The notes: generated by a model from the letters alone, not told the origin. Counted from the first letter of the stretch, positions 11,765 to 64,000 are shown. The stretch is 64,000 nucleotides of DNA from Methanobacteriota archaeon (GCA_963787255.1 CAWBCJ010000018.1:133025-197024), one strand, 5' to 3'. Translations and numbers: made by a program.

Positions 11765-11949
11765 AAAAAATCACCATATAATACTTTTATTAAAATAAGT
11801 ATTTAAACATTTTTATAATCTTATTACTAGCTTAAATCATAAAATAATACTATTTATTGAATATTTTGATATCTAAGGTTATAATATAAACTTAAAAATT
11901 AGAAAAAATCCCTATTATTAATTTAAAATAAGAAAAATATAAAAATTAA

Positions 11950-12408
11950 TCACAAAGAGTAATATTCTCCATCTTTCATCTGAATCTTCTTAATTAAACC
12001 CTTATTTTCAAGCTCTACAATCAAATGGTACATCGCAATGTTACCCAGTTTCAAATCACCATAAAGCAGATTTCCCTCCAAAGCATATCTCGAAATAAGA
12101 CCATCATTTGAAATATTTTTAATTATTTCAAATGCTTTTTTTTCAGTTTGGTTTAAATCTTCTTTTACGACCTCTGCCCTGGAGTCAACGACATTTATTT
12201 TAGAATCGACGGTTTTAGTCAATATGTAATCGTCAGACAAAGAAATAAGCCTTTTAATTTCCAAATTACCAAGAATATCCCTTAATTTAGTTTCTGATAG
12301 ATCTAAATCCATTTTTAGAATATTATAAGGAACACCATCCCTATATTCTGATTGAAAATATTTAATTTGATTGAAAATGAAATTCTCTTTTTTAGTAATG
12401 GTGATCAT
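11950..12408 (-). CDS. Conserved hypothetical protein, probable tandem winged-helix
   Basis: Two wHTH-like segments (LGNLEIKRLI; ELENKGLIKK); divergent from nurA. Confidence 0.55.
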   Translation of the reverse strand: MITITKKENFIFNQIKYFQSEYRDGVPYNILKMDLDLSETKLRDILGNLEIKRLISLSDDYILTKTVDSKINVVDSRAEVVKEDLNQTEKKAFEIIKNISNDGLISRYALEGNLLYGDLKLGNIAMYHLIVELENKGLIKKIQMKDGEYYSL

Positions 12409-50607: not shown

Positions 50608-51459
50608 TTAATTTTCTTTCTTGTTTAATAGTTTCATATAATCCCTTAAAGCATCTTTATAACTTCTTATTTCTTTAAATCCTTCCATTTTCCAGTTATA
50701 ATTTTCAAGAACAGAATATTTAGGCCTTGGCGCCGGACGAGGGAATTCTTCAGTGGAAACAGGTTTAACTTCAACTTTGATTCCTGCTATTTCAAAAATT
50801 TCTTTTGCATATTCATACCAGGAGCAGTGATCGCTATTGGTTAGGTGGTAAATACCATAAACTGGTTTTTTTATAAGTTTTGAAATGGCTGTGGCCAGAT
50901 CAACAGTGTAAGTAGGAGAACCTATTTGATCATCAACAACAGAAATACTGTCATTAGTTTCAGCTAAATTAAGCATGGTTTTAACGAAATTAGGGCCGTG
51001 GAATCCATATAACCATGATGTTCTTATGATATAAAATTTGTTTAAGATATCACGAATATAAACTTCTCCTAGATACTTGGTTTTACCATAAACACCTAAT
51101 GGATTGGTTGTGTCATATTCATAATAAGAACTACCTTTGGTACCATCAAAAACGTAGTCTGTGCATATATAAACTAGTGCACTGTCTGCTTCCTGGCATG
51201 CAACGGCTACATTTCTTGTTCCTATGCTATTTACTTTATATGCTATATCCTCATTTGATTCGCTTCCATCTACATCTGTAAAAGCTGCAGCATGCACTAC
51301 TACGTCAGGATTAATTTTTTTCACTGTTTTAATGGTTTTTTCTATGTCGGTAATGTCTAGGGTGTCGATGGTGGTGGTGCTGATTTCGTTTTCCTTTGAT
51401 AAAATGTCTACTAGATCATGTCCTAGCATGCCTTCTGAACCAATAATTAGTATTTTCAT
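50608..51459 (-). CDS. rfbD: dTDP-4-dehydrorhamnose reductase
   Basis: [34 protein letters not shown]. Confidence 0.95.
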
Positions 51460-51760: not shown

Positions 51761-52111
51761 TTAAGGTTCTAATGGTTGTTCTGTTGGTGGTTCTTCAGTT
51801 GATTGTCCTGTAGATGGGGTTTTAGTTTGAGAATTTGTGTTACTAGTTCTATATGATGTAGTTTGTCTGTTTGTAGTGCTCTTTTTTTGAGTGGTTAGCG
51901 TTGATGTATTGTTTACGTTTTCTTTTTTAATTTCAGTATTATTATGATGATTTTGATTTAGTGTAGTATTAGTTTCATTTAAATTAAGAGTATTATCTAG
52001 ATTTTGTTGTGGGGAGGATATGGCTGCGCCGTAAGCTCCAATTACTAAAAAATTCAACGAAATAAGGATGATTATAGCTTTTTCTTGCAGATTCAATGAA
52101 ACCATTCCCAT
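51761..52111 (-). CDS. Hypothetical membrane-anchored low-complexity (N/T-rich) protein
   Basis: N-terminal hydrophobic helix, then an Asn/Thr/Gln-rich tail. Confidence 0.55.
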   Translation of the reverse strand: MGMVSLNLQEKAIIILISLNFLVIGAYGAAISSPQQNLDNTLNLNETNTTLNQNHHNNTEIKKENVNNTSTLTTQKKSTTNRQTTSYRTSNTNSQTKTPSTGQSTEEPPTEQPLEP

Positions 52112-52650: not shown

Positions 52651-53608
52651 TTATTTGCCAGTTTTCTGATCATAATTAGCACTAAAATTTATATCCTGAG
52701 GCTCGTTTAATTCACCGTTGTAATTATTAGTGAATCTTAAAAACATTCGAGACATTGAATCTAAAATTATTCCGGTAAGTGCTAAAAATCCACCACAACA
52801 GGTTAAAAGAATTGCTAAAATAGTAGGAGCAAGGCTGGTGGTAGTTCTTGCCAGATATTCCCCAAAGAAAGTGAGCCCTAAAACAAGGCCGATAATAGTT
52901 ATTATGATCCCAGGTAGTGTGAAATAATAGAGGGGTTTTTTAAATTCAATTTCATTTAATATTCCCATTAAAACTCCTAAACCATGACGTACAGGCCCTT
53001 TAGTAGAACCATCAACATCATAACGCACTCCAATTTCCACCTCTTTTATGCGGAGCCCTACATTTGCTGCATTTATTAACATTTCACTTTCAATTCCAAA
53101 ACCAACAGAATTAAATCTAAAAGCAGGTATTGTATGAACTGCAAATGCTCTAAATCCACTTTGACTGTCTGTAACATCTAAACCACTGCCCATATTAGTG
53201 GCTTTATCCAGTACAGTTTGCCCAACTCTTCTATAAGCTGGAGTATCATTCTTTTTACCGTTTACGTATCTGCTGCCGTTTACTATGTCTGCTTCGCCGT
53301 TTACTATAGGGTAATACTAATTTGAATTTATATCATCAGGGTTATGCTGTCCATCAGAATCCATTGTTACAATTATATCTGTATCTCTAACAGCATTAAA
53401 ACCGGTTTTAAGTGCTGCACCTTTCCCTTGATTAGAAGCGTGTTTTATCACTTCAGCACCTGCAAGTTCGGCAATTTCGGTTGTATTATCAGTACTACCA
53501 TCATCAATGACAATTACATTATCTACATATTTTTTAGCACCAATTACCATACTACCTATAGAAATTTCTTCATTATATGCAGGTAATATAAGCAGTTATT
53601 TTTGTCAT
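52651..53608 (-). CDS. Glycosyltransferase family 2 (DPM-synthase-like) with two C-terminal TMs, split by indels
   Basis: LPAYNEE, IDDGSTD, NQGKG, MDSDGQH, DSQSGFRA across adjacent frames. Confidence 0.88.
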
Positions 53609-54037
53609 TTTTCTTCCCATTATTAATAATAGCTATCATTTTTAGTATTAAAATAAAGCCATAATAACTTTTCTAAAATGTTCAATGATAGTAATTACAA
53701 TTGTTTTATATAAATACTTTATGTTAATTCTCTAAAATTTTGTGAAAATAAGTGATTTAGTATATAAATCTATATTATTAATTATGTGAAATCTATTTGT
53801 TATTATGACCCCTATAAATAAAGAATATTCTACAATAAACATAAATAAGTTTACCCAAACCGATAAAAAATCATTTTCTCATATGAAAACCTTTATGTCT
53901 AATTAACAAGTCTAATTAGTTGATATATAATACATAAATGGCTCAATTATTTTATTGGTATATTATAGATAATTTTAAATGTTCAAATATTCTAAATATC
54001 ATTATATTGTATTATTTTATAAGTATAGGTGCAATCG

Positions 54038-55362
54038 ATGGACAAAGTAGAGGCTAAACTAGCATTTGACTGTAGGAACCCAGTTTTATGGTGAGGGAAA
54101 ATTAGAAGAAGCTCTTTCCTATTACAATAAAGCACTTAAACTATTCCAAAAAATAGACGATAAACAAAAAGAAGCAGATATACTTCTTGAAATAGGAGAC
54201 ATTCAAGTAGAACTAAGTAATTTAGATGATGCTCATAAAAAATATGAAAAGTCTCTAATTTTATACAATGAAATTAATGATTACATCGGAGCTGGCTACT
54301 CTTTAGCTGGGCAAGGTATAATAATTGAAAGATACCAAAAATATGAAGAAGCACGGGATTACTACGAAAAAGCCATTAAAAAGTTTCAAAAAGCTAAAGA
54401 CTACGAAAGAGCTGGAATAATATCCAATTTAATAGCAAATACCTATGAAATGCAGGATGCACTTGAAGATGCTTTAATAGATTATAAAAGATCACTGGAA
54501 ATATTTAGAAAAGTTAAAGATCACGACAAGGGAAGCAGAAATCTATGAATCAATAGATAAAATTGAAAAGAAAAAATCCAAAAATAAAACAACCAAAAAG
54601 AATTTACTCATTCTAATAGGATATTTAATTGCAATTGGGGCTGCTGAATTAACTAACCACATATTTCAAGCGTTGAAGTAGGGCTTATAGCAGAAACTGC
54701 TATTTTATTTGCATTATTAATTCATTCTTCATTAGTTGAATCCTACAATTTTTCTAACCTTTTAAGATCAATGATGATCCTTCCTATGATACGGATTATA
54801 GGATTAACTTTACCAATTATGCAAGTACCATCATTATACTGGTTCCCCATAATAGCTATACCTTTATTTGCAGCATCATACACTTTAATGAGAAATCAAA
54901 GACTTACACGAAGAAAAGTAGGATTAATATTAGGTAATATTCCCGTACAACTACTAATTGCATTAACTGGGTTAGTTTTAGGATTTATTGAGTTTTTAAT
55001 TCTTAAACCACAACCTCTTATCTCAACATTTAGTCTGGTGCCGCTTTTAACAGCTATCATAATACTTACCATATCTACAGGTTTTGCAGAAGAGTTACTC
55101 TTCAGGGGAATACTCCAGAGAAATGCTGAAAACTTTTTTGGAAAAGCATTTGGATTACTCTATGCATCATTATTATTTACATGTCTTCACATAGGCTGGC
55201 ATTCCTTTATAGATCTTGCATTTGTTTTTGGAGTAGTCTATGTTCTATGGTTACATGTTCCAGAAAACAAGAAGTATAGTAGGAATAACACTATCTCACG
55301 GAATATCTAATTCTGTATTGTTTTTGGTAATGCCATTTGTAGTGTTTAATTTACCATTCTAA
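54038..55362 (+). CDS. TPR domain fused to a CPBP (type II CAAX/Rce1-like) intramembrane glutamic protease (reconstructed across indels)
   Basis: TPR repeats (ORF 54066-54548) connect by a continuous reading-frame patchwork with no intergenic gap to GFAEELLFRG, FTCLH and HGISN. Confidence 0.78.
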
Positions 55363-55516
55363 CAACTATAAAAAAAACATAAGACAGGACTGGATACTGT
55401 TCTAAATAAAGGGTTGGGTAGTTGTATTCTAATTTCATATTTTATCATTTAAAATAAGATTAAATTAAAAGAAATAGGCACTTAAATTGATAATAGCTTT
55501 TAAAAGTGAGGTATAA

Positions 55517-56126
55517 TTACATATAAGTAATTTTATTTACCCTTTTTGCTTTTTCTGGGGAGTTATTAGGATACCAAATATAATCTGAATGTACCTCTAT
55601 TCTGTTACCGTTAGGTTTCATAGTAAAATTACCTTCCCAATAGGTCATCTGGCCATTAATTTGGAATGTTCCTAATAAATTTTCACCATTATTAGAGAAA
55701 GTACCATTTCCAGTCCATGCAGCACAAGACATATTGTAAGTGCCATCAAATCGGGTGCTAAACATTGCTTTTAAAAGATCATTTGATATTAAGGCATTTA
55801 TAGTGTTGTAAGTTATATGTATGTTATTTATTTTACCTGTACCATCAAGCCCCTCCTTTGTATAGTCTAGGGGGCTTTCAGCTTCTTCTGCACCAGGTAG
55901 TACCATATGAAAATTAAATTCTCTACCTTGGCCGTAAATCGTGATAAAATCCACCTAAAGAACCACCATTATCAGAATTAGGCGGTATCCAAATATGTGA
56001 AGTGTAATTGTAGGGTATTTGGTCAAATAAATAGTTTTCCAGATTGCCACTTGTTATTTCAAATGCTGCAAATCCTGAAATGAGGATAAATGCTACGAAT
56101 AGGGGTAAGGTGGTTTTTAGATTCAT
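55517..56126 (-). CDS. Hypothetical secreted or membrane-anchored beta-rich protein (indel near 55940)
   Basis: Signal/TM MNLKTTLPLFVAFILISGF, continuing into ORF 55517-55954. Confidence 0.6.
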
Positions 56127-56185
56127 TTTTTATCACTAGGATAATCAATTATTATATCTCAAAAATAAAAAAAAATAAAAGAGGT

Positions 56186-56881
56186 TTATATTTTCTGCCT
56201 ACGCAAGTTTATATTTGGATGTGCTATTAGCGAACATAATTCTGGTGGAACTGTTACAGTTATTGTTACTTTTCCGTTCTGGTCAACTGTTAGTATTTCC
56301 TCTTCGTATACGTTGAGTTCTTCGTTGTAATCCCTTATAAATCCTGGCTGTTGATGTTAATCTTGCTATGTTGGTATCTGTGAATATCAAGTTGTCAGTT
56401 ACATTTTTCGGCAACAGATCAACTCTTAAACCGGAGAATCTGATATTTGTTAGGGTATCATTTACTCCGGCTGAAGTGTTCCTGACCATCCTTGCATATT
56501 AAGGTTTAACTCACCGTTAGTTGCGGTTGTGTTATTGTACAAACCTTTCCATGCTAAAATTCGCATATTTGTGCCTGGCGGTAACTTTTCTGCCCCGTAT
56601 CCTGCAAGATTGCTTAAATCCATTACTATGGTTCCATTAGGTTTGATCCACAATTCATGGTAAGATGTTTGCAAAGTACCGTTTTTTAAGGTGACATTTT
56701 CTAAAATAACGTCCATATGTAACCAAGTGGTTCCATTATTTTGAAATGCTAACTTTGTAGCTTCAGCAGATGCAGCGCTAACTGGATTTCCATTATTGTT
56801 CATTAATGTTGTTGCGGCTAATGCACCTACAACTATTACAGCTATAAGTACACCAGCTACTATTAAAGTATTGTTTGCCAT
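56186..56881 (-). CDS. Hypothetical membrane-anchored protein with many NxT/S sequons (indels near 56470 and 56335)
   Basis: N-terminal TM; NGTT, NVTL, NGTL, NGTI, NNTT; the reconstructed C-terminus ...VPPELCSLIAHPNINLRRQKI ends near 56186. Confidence 0.6.
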
Positions 56882-56893
56882 ATTAAATGCTCC

Positions 56894-57130
56894 TTAAATG
56901 ATTGTCACCACTTTATAAGCCACTATGGCTACAAATACTAGAAGTAATGGAACTATTGCAATGTTGGATCCGTTAACGAATGATTTCATTCGTTGGCTCT
57001 TATCTGCTTCTGCGCTTAAAATTTCCTTGAATGCTAAAAATGCTATCAATGCAATTACTGCTATAATACTGAAGGTCATAACTTGTGCAGTTGTCACTGT
57101 CGTTGTTGTTGTAGTTACAGTAGATATCAT
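56894..57130 (-). CDS. 78-aa poly-Thr two-helix membrane protein
   Basis: GGAGGT RBS 7 nt before ATG 57130; MISTVTTTTTTVTTAQ followed by two hydrophobic helices. Confidence 0.8.
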   Translation of the reverse strand: MISTVTTTTTTVTTAQVMTFSIIAVIALIAFLAFKEILSAEADKSQRMKSFVNGSNIAIVPLLLVFVAIVAYKVVTII

Positions 57131-57198
57131 ATTAAATACCTCCAAATTTACTTTATTATTCTAATATATATAAGCCTTACTATTTAATCCCACATTTC

Positions 57199-57255
57199 CG
57201 TGATTTATTACACATTTTAAGCATTTATCATTCAAATATTGTGAAATATATCACA
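57199..57255. promoter_or_regulatory. Paired TGTGA-N6-TCACA-type palindromes upstream of the poly-Thr operon promoter
   Basis: Perfect tgtgaaatatatcaca (57240-57255) and degenerate cgtgatttattacaca (57199-57214); TATA-like element at about 57164-57174 on the minus strand. Confidence 0.5.
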
Positions 57256-57476
57256 TACTCATGAAATTCTATATATTAATTTATTTATTATCCCTTAAAT
57301 TCTTTTTTATAATGATATATCAGCAATTAATACTAAAAATTGAAAGGATCAAATAGAAAATTTAAACTCTAATCCTACAAATTATTTTGGGGGATTTCGG
57401 CTCAATTTTCCATAAAAAATTCAAATAATATTTATTCGAATATTCTTTGTAATGCTAAAAAAAATGAGAATAATTT

Positions 57477-59303
57477 CTAACTAACATTTATCCATAAATG
57501 CAGCGAACGATACACATTATTTTCATCTGGAAGCTTATACAATAAAGAATTCCAACTTCTGCTTCTGCCCAGATCCCGCAGTGAAATTAAAAGTCTTTTC
57601 AAACTTCTCATTATTAGCCAAAGTTATATTTTCCTCATTTAAAGTCTTATTATTTAATTTTATCATTAATTTATAATTTATAGTCGCATATTCATGATTT
57701 ACAACACCAAAAATTACACTACCAGTTTCACCTGCAGTTAAATTAGTAGGATAATCACTAGCCTTACCATTAGGACCTAAAATATAAAATTCAGTGAACT
57801 TCTCACCCTCTTTAGGAGAAGCAATAACATAACCAGTCATAGAAATCGCAAGAACAATAGAAGCAACCAAAACAATTGAAAGAACCTTATCAGTTCTATT
57901 TTCACTGCTAAATGAGGATTTAACACTATTGAAAAACCCACGGAAATCAACACTAAACCTATCATCTTCAGGAATTCTTTTTCTCCTTAAAAAGGATATA
58001 ATAGAGCATTGAAATTGTAAATATTGATAATGAAACAAGAATTGGAGTTAACCTAATCCCAAATGGAGTATAATTTAATCCTAAACCAATTAAAGGTGCA
58101 ACAGCAATGCTTAAACCAAAACTTAAAGCAACACGTTCAATACCATCTAAATCATCAATTTTAGGGAATAATGCAGCTATCAAAGCGTATCCCGGTAAAA
58201 ATAGTATAAATAAAAGACCAAATATAGTTCTAACGAAACTATCGTTTAAAATAGGGGCCGCTACAGAAATAATGCTAAAAATTGTAACTAAAAATACTAA
58301 AATAAGATCCATATAAGTTGATTTACGCCCTTTTTTATATTCCTCTTTTTTAATGGAAATAAATTCATTAAAATTACTTTTAGATTTTCTAACCTCAGAC
58401 TCCTTTCTTTCTTTTATAAATTCCTGAAGTCCGGACTTTTCCTCTTCTTTCTTTATTTTTGGAGACTTAAACCTTCTAAGGAATGCAATTAAAATTAATA
58501 CAACGGTTAAAGAGGATAAAATAAAAATAAATAAGTTCGATGGAGCAGCCGGTAATGAATAAACCATCAAAAATACAGATAAAAATAAAATAACAGCACT
58601 AAAAACAATATTTAATAAAAGACGTCTTAATTTGCTTAAACTATTATAAGGATAAATAGCGGCTGTTAAAGCATAACCAGATAAAAAGAAAAGAAGAACC
58701 GGCACCAATACGATCCTAATTCCAGAATTGCTTAACTGCGGCAACGCTAAAACCGTAACAGTAACAAAAACTAATACATTAACCACTAAAACATCAGACA
58801 ATGATAAATTTAGTTTTCTTTTTTACAGGGTTATAATCTGCATATTCAAGCTCTCCCCCACAATTACACTTAGAAAAATCCTCTAAAGATTCACCTTCTT
58901 TAAGCTGATAATAACCATTACAACTCTGGCATTTAATGTATCTTTTAACATTCTTTCTTCTTCTTAAAGCAATAAATGCCACTATAATTGTGAAAACAGC
59001 TAATATAATGAATATAGTTATTGAAGGAATATTTAAAATCCCAGAAAGATTTATTAAAGTAAATAGAAGTGTTAAAGCAGCGCTTAAAACAATACCAATT
59101 AAAACACGTTTAATCAATCCCAAACTATCTTTAACAGGGTATAAAACAGCTGTTAAAGCATATCCTGGTAAAAAGAATAACAGTAATAAGCTGGGTATAA
59201 CTCTTAAAGGAAATTGACTTAAAGGATAATAAAAGAGGGACACTGCAGAAACAATTGCAAATAAAATCACTAAAAAAAGGTCTGCGTTGTAAAATCTTTT
59301 CAT
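57477..59303 (-). CDS. Multi-module DUF1616 membrane protein with internal Zn-ribbon (probably one gene split by indels)
   Basis: Three repeats of LFFL(P/S)GYAL.A..(Y/F)P; [12 protein letters not shown]; [10 protein letters not shown]; CQSC...CNCGG; the reconstructed C-terminus [11 protein letters not shown] ends at 57477. Confidence 0.75.
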
Positions 59304-59501
59304 TGGGGGATCTCCTATTGCTTTAAATGATTTCAAAGTACTTCTAATTTCAGTATTATTGTTAGTTTATGTTATTAAATTTCCATAAGTATTGATATAA
59401 ATATGAATTAATGGTATAAAACTTTATTTAAACAAAAATACATTATTAAGTTTAATAAACTAATATAAATAACTTATAAAAAAAAATTGAGGAAATTCAA
59501 T

Positions 59502-59792
59502 ATGAACAAATTATCACTTTCATCAACAATTTCAGTAACCAAAGAAGCAGTACACTGCGATGTAGAAGAAGAAGTAGTAATTTTATCCATGAAAGATGGA
59601 GTCTATTATGGGCTTAATCCAGTTGGAGCATTTATCTGGAACCAAATCCAGAAACCCAAAAAAGTAGAAGAAATTCGCGATTCGATATTGGAAGAATTCG
59701 ACGTGGAAAAAAAAGAATGCGAAGCAGATTTAATGCAACTCCTCGGGGAATTATTAGAAAAGAACCTTATTGAGGATGTAGATGATTCATAG
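59502..59792 (+). CDS. PqqD-family RiPP recognition element (lasso B1-like)
   Basis: EVVILS..DGVYYGLNPVGAFIW...I..EFDV....CEADL..LL.EL.EKNLI. Confidence 0.92.
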   Translation: MNKLSLSSTISVTKEAVHCDVEEEVVILSMKDGVYYGLNPVGAFIWNQIQKPKKVEEIRDSILEEFDVEKKECEADLMQLLGELLEKNLIEDVDDS

Positions 59793-60212
59793 CTTTTTAA
59801 AACTAGACATTTCAAGATAAAATTCTATTAATTAAAGCTCTATTTTTACTTTGGATTTAGTCAGAATAATGCTCTGGATGCTTCCTTTTTCAAGGATTCA
59901 AAGAATTATAAATGAAATTAATGTAAAATCAGATGAGAATGAAATTTCAGGAAGTATCCAGTGGAAAAACTAACTTGGGCTGTAGAAGTAATGAGCATCT
60001 ATACTCCCCGAGCCACATGCCTGACCCGTGCATTAGCTGCACAAATACTACTTGCAAGATATCATTATTCATCAAACATTAAGATAGGTGTGTCTAAAAA
60101 TGAAGGGGAATTTGAAGCACATGCATGGCTAGAAGCAAATGATAGAATAATTCTTGGTGAATCAGAAACGGAATATACTCCAATACTTAAGATGGGTGAA
60201 AAAACACAATGA
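59782..60212 (+). CDS. Lasso peptide B2 leader peptidase (transglutaminase-like), 5' part frameshifted
   Basis: ATCLTRALA (catalytic Cys), IGV, FEAHAWLE (His); overlaps the B1 stop. Confidence 0.9.
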
Positions 60213-60298
60213 GCGCAATAACAGGGATATTCTACAGAGATGGACGTAAAGTTGACCCGGAACTAATTAAAAAGATGAATGATAGGCTTTCCATATGA
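60209..60298 (+). pseudogene. Truncated 5' stub of a lasso cyclase gene
   Basis: MSAITGIFYRDGRKVDPELIKKMNDRLSI* is nearly identical to the start of the gene at 61384; AT-rich non-coding DNA follows. Confidence 0.75.
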
Positions 60299-60458
60299 TC
60301 ATGAATTTCTGTTTGAGTTAAGGCTAGCTAGTTTAGGTATCAAATGTTCTGAATTTTAAATTAAAAAATCATTTTTGAGTTAAAATAATTATTTAAAAAT
60401 TATAGAAATTTATATTTATAAAGAATTATATGAATTATGAAAAATAGAGGATGAATTA

Positions 60459-61369
60459 ATGTTTTATTATAATGCATTTGGATTAAATATTTCATCTGAA
60501 GTAGAACTTCCAGGAATGATTGAAAAAGTAGATAATGATAAATTTGATGTTAAAATATCTTTAGATGAAGTAAATCTTCCAGTAGTCTAGACAATAAAAA
60601 GGTTCTAATTACATTGTAGATTGATGAAAATGTCTATTTATGGTGGGAAGATATTGGAAAGGTGAAGATAAGTAGTGGAAATCAAATAATTGTTGATTCA
60701 TCATCTAATTTGAATAATTCTGATGAAACTAATATAATTCCTTTTTTATTGGGACCTGTAATGTCAATTTTGCTTCATCAAAGAGGCTTTTTAGTTCTCC
60801 ATGGAAGTTCTATTAAAGTTAATAAAGGAGCAATTGCTTTTTTAGGGTATAGAGGGACTTGGGAAATCAACAACTGCTATTAATTTATATAAAAAGGGTT
60901 ATCCTCTGATAACTGATGATATTCTGGCTGTTAGATTTGATGATGAAGGATTACCGATTGTATATCCAGGTTATCCTCATGTACAGATTATCAGAAGATT
61001 CTTTTGTCCATATAAAGGATGATACGAATATTTTGACACCTATCCGTACCTATGCAGGGAAAGTTTTTTGTGATGCTTCCCGAGGTTTTTCACAAGGACC
61101 AATCAAATTAAAAAAGATTTACATCCTTGAAAATGGTAAAAAAACGAGAATTTCAATTTTCAATTCTCAAGAAAATGTTATTAATCTTATTAGGCATTCA
61201 ATTGCCAATAAAATTTTCGAAGATAATAAAGATCAAGCAAAAAATTTAATTCAATGCGCCAATTTAATTAATAATACTCTTATTAGCCGTTTGGAAATAT
61301 CACATTCATTTAAAAATCTTCCTGATTTAGTTAAACCTAATTGAAGATGATTTTAAAAGTGAAAGATGA
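60459..61369 (+). CDS. HPr-kinase-like P-loop kinase (lasso peptide kinase type), split by indels
   Basis: MFYYNAFGLNISSE; LLHQRGFLVLHGSS; AFLGYRG.GKSTTA Walker A; LITDD. Confidence 0.85.
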
Positions 61370-61383
61370 ACTAGGTGATGATA

Positions 61384-63308
61384 ATGAGTGCAATAACGGG
61401 ATTTTTTACAGAGATGGGCGAAAAGTTGAACCAGAACTTAATTAAAAATGATGAATGAATAGGCTTTCACATAGAGGACCTGATGGATCTGCTAGTTTGG
61501 TGTAAGAAATGGATAGCCAGTTGCTTTAGGTCATCAGATGCTCTGGACAACCCCAGAATCCCTGCAAGAGAAACTACCCTTTCATGACGAAAAAACAGGT
61601 CTAGTTATCACTGCAGATGCCAGGATAGATAACCGAAAGGAGCTATCAGAAGAACTTGAATATTGAAGATAAAGAAGATGTATCTGACAGTTATTTTATA
61701 TTGAAAGCTTACGAAAAATGGGGTGAAAAATGTCCTGAAAAGCTTTTAGGTGATTTTGCATTTGCCATCTGGGATGAAAATGAGGAAAAATTATTTTGTG
61801 CAAGGGATCACATGGGTGTGAAGCCATTTTATTATTATTTAGATGATGAGATGTTTGTTTTTGGAACTGAGATTAAATCCTTGTTTTGTGTTCCTGGGGT
61901 TCCTTATAAGTTAAATGACTTAAAAATGGCATTTTTTATCTTAATGGACATATGACGACAAAAAATTAACCTTTTATGAAAATATTTTTCGATTACCTCC
62001 TGCACATTCATTAACAATAGATCAAAATCATTACAAATAAAGAAATATTGGAAAATGTATCCGGAATACTAAATTATAATGGATTCTGATGAGGAATATA
62101 TTAAAGCATTTCGGGAAATATTTACAGAAGCTGTTAATTGTCGTTTGAGAAGTGCATTTCCTATAGGATTTGAATTAAGTGGAGGGTTAGATTCATCATC
62201 TGTAGTATGTATGGCAAAATTCTTATAAGTAATAGTAATTCTATGATCGTAATATGAATACTTTCTCATATTCTTTTAGAGATTTTCCGAAGTTGATGAA
62301 CGACTTTATATAAATATGATTATAAATACTGGAGGAATAAACCTCATTATCATGTTTATGGGGATAATATAAGTCCAATGGAAAAAATGGAAAATATTAT
62401 TTGGCATTTAGAACAGCCACCTTATACTCCTTATTATCCGGATTATATGGAATTATACAAAAAAATGCAGGAAAATGAGATACGTATTAGTTTAAGTGGT
62501 GGTGGTGGTGATGGAACTATTTCTCATGGTGAAAGTATCTGCATTAAAGATTTGCTCTACATTCCAGTTTAAAAAGTTGATGAGGGAACTTAAGGGTCAT
62601 TCAAAGCTTGTTAATCAGAACTTTTATCATTCACTTATTAATCAAGTTATTTTTCCGTTTTTACCAATTATGATAAAGAATTTGTTGTTATCCAAATAGA
62701 ATACAAGATTGTTTAAAATGAAGGTACTTATATATTGAATAAAAATATGGGTAAGGAGATTTGGCGTGGTGAAAGATTATTTGAAAAAACTTCTTATTAT
62801 CCTGGTGAAACCTTCAATGAAGCCAAAACGGCTAGAAAATACTCATTATTTATCTGTTAGTTCTGATCTTATGATTTAGAAATGAAATGAAAATATGGCT
62901 AAAGTTGCTTTACCTTCCTATTGAACCAAGATATCCTTATTTTGATAAAAGACTAGTCGAATTTTGTTATGCTAGTACCAAGTGAAATGAAATTTAGAGT
63001 TTGGATGGGCTCGTTACTTACAACGTGTAGCCCTACAGAATATTTTACCTAGTAAAGTTCAGTGGCGTTATTCAAATGAAGTTTTCTCCAGAAGAGAAAG
63101 AAACCTTTTATTATTTGAGAAGGATCGTTTAGATAAAGTTTCTAATGTAAAAAACAATATTATAAATGATTATGTAGATTTAAATCTCATCAATGTTAAA
63201 TATCAAAAATATATCACTGGAAAAGATTATGGTCCAACTGATGTACTAATCTTATGGTTAGCAATGAGTTTAGATTTCTGGTTGCAAGAAAATAATAATA
63301 TTTTTTGA
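61384..63308 (+). CDS. AsnB-like lasso cyclase (C protein), heavily frameshifted
   Basis: MSAITG start (no Cys1), HRGPDG, DARIDNR, GDFAFAIWD, ARDHMGVKPFYY, ELSGGLDSS, RYPYFDKRLVEF. Confidence 0.85.
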
Positions 63309-63531
63309 GTTTAAAATATTAATGAATGATTTTCTTGATGAAGTTAAATTCGATTAAGTGTTAAATTTATAAAAAAATCTTAAAAATTATCAAAGTAAAA
63401 CAATGAAAAGATTTTCAAAAAAATTGATTAAATTGAAGAAAGTATATTCAGACACGAAAGACTTGAAAAAATGCTTATTCTAGAAAAAGACAGCCTAAAT
63501 AATAATCGATTAGATCTATTAGGAGAATAAG

Positions 63532-64000
63532 ATGTATTCTCATATAAAGCATTTGGATTAATTATATCATCAGAGATCAAACTTCCAGGAATGATAGAAA
63601 CAAATAGTAATAACGAATACGATGTTGAAATATCTATTGGAAAAGTTAATCTCCCCTCATCTGAACCGTTGCTAAAAGGTCCAGATTTTCTTTTAGATAA
63701 TGGAATTGTATATTTTTTATGGGATGATATAGGTAAAATAAAGATAAGCTGCAATCATATCATTATTGACTTAATATCTGAATCGATTGATAAATTTAAT
63801 ATTATACCCTCTTTATTAGGGCCTATAATGGCAATTTTACTTTATCAAAGAGGGTTATTAGTGTTACATGGAAGCTCGGTTAAAGTTAAAGGAGAAGCTA
63901 TTGCTTTTTTAGGTTATAGTGGGATTGGAAAATCCACAACTGCTATCAATTTATTTAAAAAAGGTTATCCTCTATTAACAGACGATATTCTGGCTATTAG
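63532..64000 (+). CDS. Second HPr-kinase-like kinase, 5' part; runs off the window
   Basis: AGGAG RBS; KAFGLIISSEIKLPGM, LLYQRGLLVLHGSS, GYSGIGKSTTA, LLTDD; paralog of 60459-61369. Confidence 0.85.

Follow-up and report, generated by a model that had tools for sequence, protein, structure and literature searches.

What question does the end of contig C18 raise in G000, a genome of a Methanobacteriota archaeon? Genes of lasso-peptide type lie there directly beside genes for small membrane and exported proteins, and it had to be asked whether the two sets form one pathway. The genome comprises 2.47 Mb in 29 contigs with ~32% G+C, and its proteins have their nearest named homologues in Methanobacterium. 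Positions given here are those of the window, the whole stretch of 64,000 nucleotides (nt) that was analysed (G000:C18:133025-197024). Its right end is the end of the contig (197 kb), and the studied stretch is the final 11.4 kb. The first-pass annotation had proposed that the lasso-type enzymes act on a 78-amino-acid (aa) poly-threonine (poly-Thr) membrane protein. The product would be cleaved, phosphorylated and/or glycosylated and then displayed on the cell envelope. The results indicate, with a probability of about 0.7, that the 11 kb are instead the junction of two separately conserved modules in a Methanobacterium-like archaeon, a lasso module (module A, 59.5-64 kb) and an envelope module (module B, 52.6-59.3 kb), both of which are disrupted as assembled.

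Gene content and disruption at the contig end

Families were assigned by Pfam search of the open reading frames (ORFs) in the window and by NCBIfam search of the orthologues in G019, a complete genome. Pfam recovered the families named in the first-pass annotation (GT2, TPR-CPBP, DUF1616, RRE, B2, AsnB-like ligase and kinase) at about the places where it had put them, and the rfbD gene that it had noted further left is the RmlD gene, ~1.2 kb from the GT2 gene. The features, with module A first, then module B and the left-hand context, are as follows.

59487..59792, plus strand: lasso RRE (B1, PqqD family), PF05402 73.6 bits (cut-off 23.4); intact 101-aa ORF, divergent from the DUF1616 gene
59758..60212, plus strand: lasso leader peptidase B2 (transglutaminase-like), PF13471 79.2 bits; N-terminal ~60 codons disrupted, C-terminal 83 open
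60209..60292, plus strand: duplicated 5' cyclase fragment of 28 codons, identical to the beginning of the G001 cyclase
60459..61366, plus strand: HPr-kinase-like kinase 1, homologous to intact orthologues of 298-303 aa; 5 frameshifts, 1 stop
61384..63319, plus strand: lasso cyclase C (Asn-synthase-like), homologous over its full length; 14 frameshifts, 9 in-frame stops
63531..64000, plus strand: HPr-kinase-like kinase 2, PF07475 35.7 bits (cut-off 33.3) at 63591-63998; 156 codons open, clipped by the contig end
52651..53610, minus strand: GT2 glycosyltransferase, dolichyl-phosphate hexose synthase-like (AglJ-like), PF00535 67.6 bits at 53317-53550; two C-terminal membrane helices
54038..55362, plus strand: TPR-CPBP (Rce1-like glutamic intramembrane protease with N-terminal TPR), TPR at 54066-54548, PF02517 40.2 bits at 54771-55310
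55517..56136, minus strand: exported protein 2, orthologues of 201-205 aa; frameshift near 55940
56213..56881, minus strand: exported protein 1, orthologues of 221-222 aa; frameshifts near 56467 and 56357
56894..57130, minus strand: poly-Thr protein, 78 aa, two membrane helices; intact, 76/78 residues identical to G013
57474..59336, minus strand: DUF1616 protein, three membrane modules plus a CARDB-like beta-sandwich at the C-terminus; broken by frameshifts near 58811, 58000 and 57546
50608..51459, minus strand: RmlD (dTDP-4-dehydrorhamnose reductase family), PF04321 342 bits; intact, left-hand context

Intact orthologues from the three closest relatives (G013, G021 and G001) were aligned to the window DNA by a frameshift-aware dynamic programme. 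As shown by this alignment, eight of the 11 genes at 52.6-64 kb were disrupted, with ~35 frameshifts and 12 in-frame stops in all, and open frames remained only in the poly-Thr gene, the RRE gene and the clipped kinase 2 gene. Beyond the counts listed above for kinase 1 and the cyclase, the GT2 gene carried one frameshift and one in-frame TAG, the TPR-CPBP gene five frameshifts, the two exported-protein genes two frameshifts apiece (one of them at codon 2) and the DUF1616 gene three. The breaks in B2, three frameshifts and one stop, all fell within its first 60 codons. Long open frames covered a fraction of 0.34-0.36 of the terminal 11 kb against a median of 0.76, which places it in the lowest ~1% of 1109 windows of the genome; from 1 to 52 kb of the window, long ORFs were normal. 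An alternative genetic code was ruled out, since the stops found in frame are of all three kinds (TAA, TAG and TGA), which the reassignment of a single codon does not explain, and most breaks are changes of frame. As an inventory of families the first-pass annotation therefore stood, and as an inventory of intact genes it did not; the fragmentation had gone unremarked in it, and an orderly list of gene families can mask fragmented genes. As assembled in this genome, neither module A nor module B can work. Because the genes are mostly broken in the assembly, nothing suggests that a pathway runs in G000.

We attribute the disruptions, with somewhat better than even confidence, to real decay. An alternative is that the consensus sequence is wrong at a contig end with poor coverage, for example in a long-read overhang or in an island that varies between strains of a metagenome; both modules would then be intact in the organism. 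To this explanation we give a smaller yet substantial weight. A series of observations agrees with it and weighs against decay. The disrupted ~11.4 kb lie at the very end of the contig, and contig ends hold 7 of the 25 most ORF-poor 11 kb windows in the genome. Single-base insertions predominate among the 35 frame changes (27 vs 8 others), and no large deletions or indels were seen in the broken genes. At the nucleotide level the broken genes are 74-81% identical to their orthologues, which matches the intact RmlD gene used as control (80.3% identity with G013 across 552 ungapped nt). Once the frameshifts are corrected, the proteins show no greater divergence than that among intact orthologues; an excess divergence of the broken genes, looked for as proof of decay, was not seen. 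Split genes also occur on the small contigs C27 and C28.

Consensus error, on the other hand, accounts poorly for the distribution of the events. Their density is uneven, with 23 in the 1.9 kb of the cyclase gene against 4 in the DUF1616 gene (1.8 kb), and the poly-Thr, RRE and kinase 2 genes (~1 kb in total) are free of events, for which a uniform error of 0.3-0.5% predicts a chance of only ~1-5% by our estimate. A permease and ATPase pair of the iron/cobalamin-type ATP-binding cassette (ABC) kind, each gene split over several frames by multiple frameshifts, lies deep inside a 1.09 Mb contig (C29:563900-565100, at 563.9-565.1 kb), outside the window. Two genomes of the same genus, G005 and G009, lack both modules, and loss is therefore tolerated. 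A scan of metagenome contigs with exact patterns from the poly-Thr gene stretch gave no match. A look-up of sequencing runs returned only four, all soil metagenomes of a single study, with small shares (0.10-0.12), and no habitat is assigned on that basis.

Other GT2 and ABC genes of G000 are mostly whole, with a few broken on C25, C27 and C28. Split or truncated ABC, GT2 and DUF1616 genes were observed at C27:1193-1931, C28:8703-9103 and 11919-12044, and C25:366518-366928 and 221242-221652.

The lasso cluster and its precursor

The search by DNA for synteny in 41 related genomes and the fetched loci showed that the gene order of the window is found in many genomes of the same genus, with intact genes. 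The complete genome G019 carries on one strand an ABC permease, an ABC ATPase, an NTP_transf_5-methyltransferase fusion, an HPr-kinase-like kinase, a small ORF, the cyclase (638 aa), B2 and RRE. The divergent strand carries DUF1616 (600 aa), the poly-Thr protein (78 aa), exported proteins of 222 aa and 201 aa, a CPBP protein (303 aa), TPR-CPBP (450 aa), GT2 (320 aa) and RmlD.

The module A genes belong to ordinary lasso families. The G019 orthologues scored above the lasso-specific NCBIfam cut-offs for the cyclase (NF033535, 712 vs 525 bits), B2 (82.5 vs 33 bits) and RRE (NF033536, 83.5 vs 80 bits). The gene that had been described as a 'Cys1-less AsnB-like ligase' accordingly turned out by its orthologue to be a plain lasso cyclase. 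In the window, RRE shares 75/100 residues with G001 and is undisrupted. The PF13471 match of B2 (cut-off 26) lies in the ORF at 59961-60212(+) and covers profile positions 39-116 only. The cyclase shares 430/622 residues with G021, with Pfam GATase_7 matched on one piece (Asn-synthase GATase pieces at 61656-61955(+)). Intact orthologues of kinase 1 match PF07475 with 28.9 bits (E 1e-06), below the curated cut-off of 33.3, and kinase 2 is 59.7% identical to a G001 kinase over 159 aligned positions. No continuation of kinase 2 was found on any other G000 contig.

The small ORF beside the G019 cyclase is a textbook lasso precursor. A regular expression for the leader, [YFW]xxPx[LIVM]x3Gx5Tx, was applied to 28 lasso loci from 8 genera, and a precursor ORF was found beside the cyclase in 19 of them. 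Core length ranges from 13 to 21 residues; D/E stands at position 7-9 in every one of the 19, and Ser is the last residue in 10/19. The lasso genes thus constitute a self-contained, kinase-bearing, paeninodin-like cluster that has its own precursor in relatives, and since the clusters have a canonical precursor of their own, the poly-Thr protein is not the lasso substrate. Inspection of the gap between the cyclase and kinase 2 in G000 and G021 revealed no precursor, and both contigs end there; the precursor of G000 may lie beyond the contig end. A tblastn search of G000 with the G019 NTP_transf_5 fusion gave only a match of the methyltransferase domain elsewhere, and no cluster-linked exporter was found; the contig ends inside the cluster.

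We infer the chemistry from the enzyme families; the gene content and the precursors were observed directly. RRE would bind the leader of the 38-45-aa precursor, B2 would cut the leader after the Thr-x site, and the cyclase would join the new N-terminus to the Asp/Glu at core position 7-9. The HPr-kinase-like enzymes would presumably phosphorylate the C-terminal Ser. Further modification may come from the NTP_transf_5 enzyme, which in some cases carries a fused methyltransferase, and export would be by the ABC pump.

G000 and G021 share the arrangement B1-B2-C'-K1-C-K2, in which C' is the duplicated 5' cyclase fragment. The fragment is left over from an old rearrangement, shared by a subgroup within the genus, in which kinase 1 came to lie between B2 and the cyclase. 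Further 5' cyclase fragments between B2 and kinase 1 were seen at L010:10489-10611 and L013:5527-5649. Two or three HPr-kinase-like genes occur in many archaeal lasso loci (e.g. L018, L020, L025/L044, L013 and the window), and the precursor gene often forms a pair with one of them on a strand of its own. An HEPN/nucleotidyltransferase (MNT-like) pair lies inside the lasso cluster, in the interval between kinase and cyclase, at L009:6383-7355 (G001) and in L010 and L013; it is absent from the window.

The envelope module and its relation to the lasso cluster

The occurrence of both modules was surveyed in 151 genomes of Methanobacteriales, with families labelled f1, f2 (n=9) and f3 (n=5). B2 was detected above the Pfam cut-off in 46/151 genomes, of which 44 have small lasso-type ORFs and 2 have the match inside ORFs of 982-1198 aa; it was found in 0/9 genomes of f2 and 0/5 of f3. 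The poly-Thr protein was present in 76/151 genomes, including 9/9 of f2 and 5/5 of f3, and was absent from three large genera (0/35, 0/12 and 0/9). According to a hand tally from the two occurrence tables, which served for all joint counts of B2 and the poly-Thr protein, a lasso-type B2 is missing from 33 of the 76 genomes with the poly-Thr protein. The f2 (G037) and f3 (G028) loci are made up of the poly-Thr gene, an exported protein of 207-209 aa, a sugar-phosphate nucleotidyltransferase (PF00483) and TPR-CPBP; DUF1616, GT2 and lasso genes are all absent from the vicinity. The poly-Thr and TPR-CPBP genes are therefore neighbours in three families, and the core of the module across the order is the poly-Thr protein, an exported beta-sandwich protein and TPR-CPBP. 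In five genera of f1 the module also includes the second exported protein, DUF1616 and the AglJ-like GT2, and only there do DUF1616 and this GT2 belong to it. Since the poly-Thr module occurs in f2 and f3 without lasso genes, DUF1616 or GT2, it is older than, and independent of, the lasso cluster.

The 78-aa poly-Thr membrane protein and the two exported proteins of the first-pass annotation are real, the poly-Thr gene and the two ORFs downstream of it being kept in 8/8 syntenic loci. In the orthologue alignment the poly-Thr protein begins with an invariant MISTVT followed by a Thr run; it has no significant Pfam or NCBIfam family, and one source labels a homologue DUF350. Single-base frameshifts in the TPR-CPBP gene lie near 54071, 54525, 54652, 54668 and 55236; intact orthologues have 439-502 aa. 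Motifs 1 and 2 of the protease are in the ORF at 54771-55310, and motif 3 is in another frame after the frameshift near 55236. The three motifs, EExxxR, FxxxH and HxxxN, are invariant in 48 TPR-CPBP orthologues.

A complex of the CPBP membrane domain (G019 residues 185-450) with the poly-Thr protein was modelled from unpaired alignments made for this analysis. The model reached an ipSAE of 0.80, and the best of three controls 0.00; the mark of 0.80 is reached by 116/157 solved complexes and by 2/215 mismatched pairs. Between the three runs at least 83% of contacts are shared, and the partner pLDDT is at least 77. The predicted interface includes CPBP residues 354, 387, 423 and 427, which belong to the three catalytic motifs, and poly-Thr residues 1-8. 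The model supports binding of the poly-Thr protein to the CPBP membrane domain. It speaks against this reading that the controls were perhaps not membrane proteins, so that generic helix packing may be involved. As the most likely mechanism, CPBP would bind the poly-Thr protein in the membrane and either cleave it or be regulated by it. Action of CPBP on the poly-Thr protein is the best-supported mechanistic step of the earlier idea as far as predicted binding goes; the link that had been drawn from it to the lasso enzymes did not hold, and the step is unrelated to them.

A pathway in which the poly-Thr peptide is the substrate of RRE, B2, the ligase and the kinases and is then cleaved by CPBP, glycosylated and displayed is very improbable. 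The genes are adjacent, RRE and DUF1616 are divergent in 13 genomes, and the Thr-rich N-terminus would supply hydroxyl groups. Nevertheless, canonical precursors stand beside the cyclase in the 19 loci described above, and the cyclase is of the ordinary lasso family. A YxxPxL leader motif is lacking in the poly-Thr protein, whose 78 aa amount to two membrane helices, and the poly-Thr module occurs in 14/14 genomes of two lasso-free families. The proponents of the single pathway had said beforehand that independent occurrence of the lasso and poly-Thr blocks in related genomes, together with a canonical lasso precursor just beyond the window, would refute it. Both were found in relatives, the former in the 33 lasso-free poly-Thr genomes and the latter in 19/28 loci, with none found in G000 itself, and the single-pathway idea therefore fails.

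Several results do weigh against a complete separation of the two modules. Among the 44 lasso genomes, the poly-Thr gene was <4 kb from the lasso cluster in 13, at 4-20 kb in 16, at 32.5 kb in 1 and >100 kb away in 2; it was on another contig in 11, and 1 genome had none. This frequent adjacency, within 33 kb in 30 genomes, may leave room for a functional tie. The junction with module B persists through rearrangements of the lasso cluster, the gene that faces DUF1616 being RRE in some loci and the kinase in others. Joint disruption of both modules in G000 would also be predicted by a shared function. Finally, the precursor expression gave only 5 unconvincing matches over the whole 2.47 Mb of G000, none of them near the cluster.

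Clustering of all ORFs of the 28 lasso loci revealed further recurrent neighbours: 20 loci, from 8 genera, encode DUF11-type giant surface proteins, 12 loci from 6 genera encode NAD-dependent sugar epimerase/dehydratases, and 11 loci from 4 genera have GT1 genes. Lasso clusters are thus habitually embedded among envelope and glycan genes in 8 genera. Giant DUF11-repeat proteins of 1300-1500 aa flank the lasso cluster at L009:12-4184, L014:1461-5996, L016:660-4562, L048:1-4472 and others. CPBP/Abi-type proteins are linked to bacteriocin immunity.

The modules might accordingly be distinct but coupled, with a phosphorylated lasso peptide that acts at or attaches to the envelope and with neighbours that give display, a receptor or self-immunity. 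The two are on one contig in 32 genomes and within 33 kb in 30/32 of them, both are disrupted together in G000, and DUF11, epimerase/dehydratase and GT1 neighbours recur among the lasso loci of the 8 genera. In a 2026 report, paeninodin-like clusters of Bacilli are likewise embedded in capsular polysaccharide loci, where their role is given as unknown (PMC13381572). These arguments are offset by others. The genomes are kin and not independent, and conserved synteny of one chromosomal region within the family is an equally good explanation of the adjacency. In G042 and G049 the lasso cluster and the poly-Thr gene are 103 kb and ~179 kb apart, genera g9, g13 and g20 have no DUF1616 within 10 kb of the lasso cluster, and the 33 poly-Thr genomes without a lasso cluster have been mentioned. 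Chance neighbours are likely, given how many envelope genes and DUF11 proteins these genomes encode. Because of this kinship and this abundance, we regard functional coupling as unlikely. Equally doubtful is the joint proposal that the poly-Thr protein and TPR-CPBP are an undescribed intramembrane protease-client (or regulator) pair in three Methanobacteriales families and that kinase-bearing lasso clusters are tied to envelope and glycan neighbourhoods by function and not through descent alone, in the 8 archaeal genera and independently in the capsule loci of Bacilli. If the tie were true, the lasso class would be an envelope-directed or attached molecule and not a diffusible antibiotic.

The remaining proteins of module B were characterised through their orthologues. 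The GT2 gene is interrupted by TAG at 53317-53319 and by a frameshift or lost start near 53593, and the intact orthologue has 320-321 aa. Assignment as an AglJ equivalog was rejected, the G019 orthologue scoring 177 bits with TIGR04182, below the equivalog cut-off of 325; the protein is a dolichyl-phosphate hexose synthase-type GT2. Exported protein 2 has no Pfam or NCBIfam family. An orthologue of exported protein 1 was modelled as an N-terminal membrane helix and a beta-sandwich (pLDDT 84.6). It gave no Foldseek match at E<=0.001, and in a wide VIA search the best Z was 5.1 (root-mean-square deviation 3.0, 81 aligned), to generic beta-sandwiches, with no close solved fold.

PF07760 matched three ORF pieces of the DUF1616 gene across 57535-59336(-) with 151, 159 and 54 bits (cut-off 31.6), in a very large family (7288 representatives at E<=0.001). 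A module of the orthologue was modelled as a helical membrane bundle with a beta-sandwich (pLDDT 94.7), and the best Foldseek match of the sandwich was the CARDB domain 2kl6 of PF1109 (E 5.7e-6, TM 0.72 by target length, 113 columns). An identity as a GT-C type glycosyltransferase was unsupported, as Foldseek matched the C-terminal sandwich only and the helical part had no match. A Zn-ribbon-like CxxC...CxC stretch was observed between membrane modules 1 and 2 (window 58794-59336(-); L011:8299-10101).

To the left, a 116-aa ORF at 51761-52111 (-) between RmlD and GT2 begins with a signal-like stretch and ends in a low-complexity tail rich in Asn, Thr and Ser. The spacing between RmlD and GT2 is 130 nt in G013, and in G019 the gap is occupied by an insertion sequence (IS)-type helix-turn-helix transposase ORF.

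In sum, the region holds a disrupted lasso cluster of a known kind next to a disrupted copy of an uncharacterised, conserved envelope module, and the leads are in intact relatives. No report on an archaeal lasso peptide was found in our literature search, and Euryarchaeota are listed only as predicted lasso sources in the available parts of two papers (PMC7533575, PMC12214591). Intact canonical kinase-bearing clusters with readable cores are common in Methanobacteriaceae (44/151 genomes of the order), and cultured relatives, not G000, would therefore be the place to isolate the first archaeal lasso peptide. The analysis also sets apart a small conserved envelope module of poly-Thr protein, exported beta-sandwich protein and TPR-CPBP, in which the predicted contact between protease and partner is directly testable. 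Genetic tools exist for Methanothermobacter (PMC10370314).

Comparison with known systems

The small exported protein genes recall the Mth60 fimbria operon of Methanothermobacter, in which small exported glycoprotein genes are involved in the surface (PMC10370314). Both are sets of small exported protein genes of Methanobacteriales. That operon was rejected as the same locus: mth61 of G037 starts at 38.5 kb of C1, and the poly-Thr gene is at 567 kb. The exported proteins gave no tblastn match at E<=1e-3 to the mth58-61 operon region.

The DUF1616 protein resembles HVO_2173 of Haloferax volcanii and its family in belonging to PF07760, in combining a polytopic membrane part with an outer beta-sandwich, and in being encoded near an exported protein. 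HVO_2173 is an AglB-dependent N-glycoprotein and is listed beside the secreted glycoprotein HVO_2172 in PMC8241124. A search of the literature by the name DUF1616 gave only this N-glycoprotein listing and no function for any member. Unlike other DUF1616 proteins, the window protein has three membrane modules and the Zn-ribbon-like insert.

TPR-CPBP shares PF02517 and the three invariant motifs with CPBP/Rce1-like proteases of the myxosortase (MrtS/MrtJ) and Abi types, and its matches to the NCBIfam myxosortase-family models are weak (27-35 bits, below the cut-offs). As with other CPBP proteases, a small membrane protein is the likely client according to the complex model. TPR-CPBP differs from MrtS/MrtJ and Abi-type proteins in its N-terminal cytoplasmic TPR domain, and it is broken in G000. 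The predicted partner differs from other CPBP clients in being a two-helix protein with MISTVT and a Thr run, and not a C-terminal sorting signal or CAAX box.

The closest relatives of module A are the paeninodin/pseudomycoidin-type clusters of Bacillota, which have a split B1/B2, an HPr-kinase-like kinase, a nucleotidyltransferase and an ABC exporter. The window shares with them the RRE, B2, cyclase and HPr-kinase-like genes, and relatives also have NTP_transf_5 and the ABC transporter. The precursors of the relatives have the YxxPxLx3Gx5Tx leader, and the 10/19 that are Ser-terminated end in the residue that is phosphorylated by the kinases in paeninodin, as described in PMC7533575. The archaeal lasso loci lie among polysaccharide and envelope genes, as do, by report, the clusters of Bacilli (PMC13381572). 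They differ from the paeninodin type in their archaeal host, in the two or three kinase genes often present per locus, in the NTP_transf_5-methyltransferase fusion of G019 and in the HEPN/nucleotidyltransferase pair inserted in some relatives. The copy in G000 differs further in having no precursor, NTP_transf_5 or exporter and in its broken B2, kinase 1 and cyclase genes.

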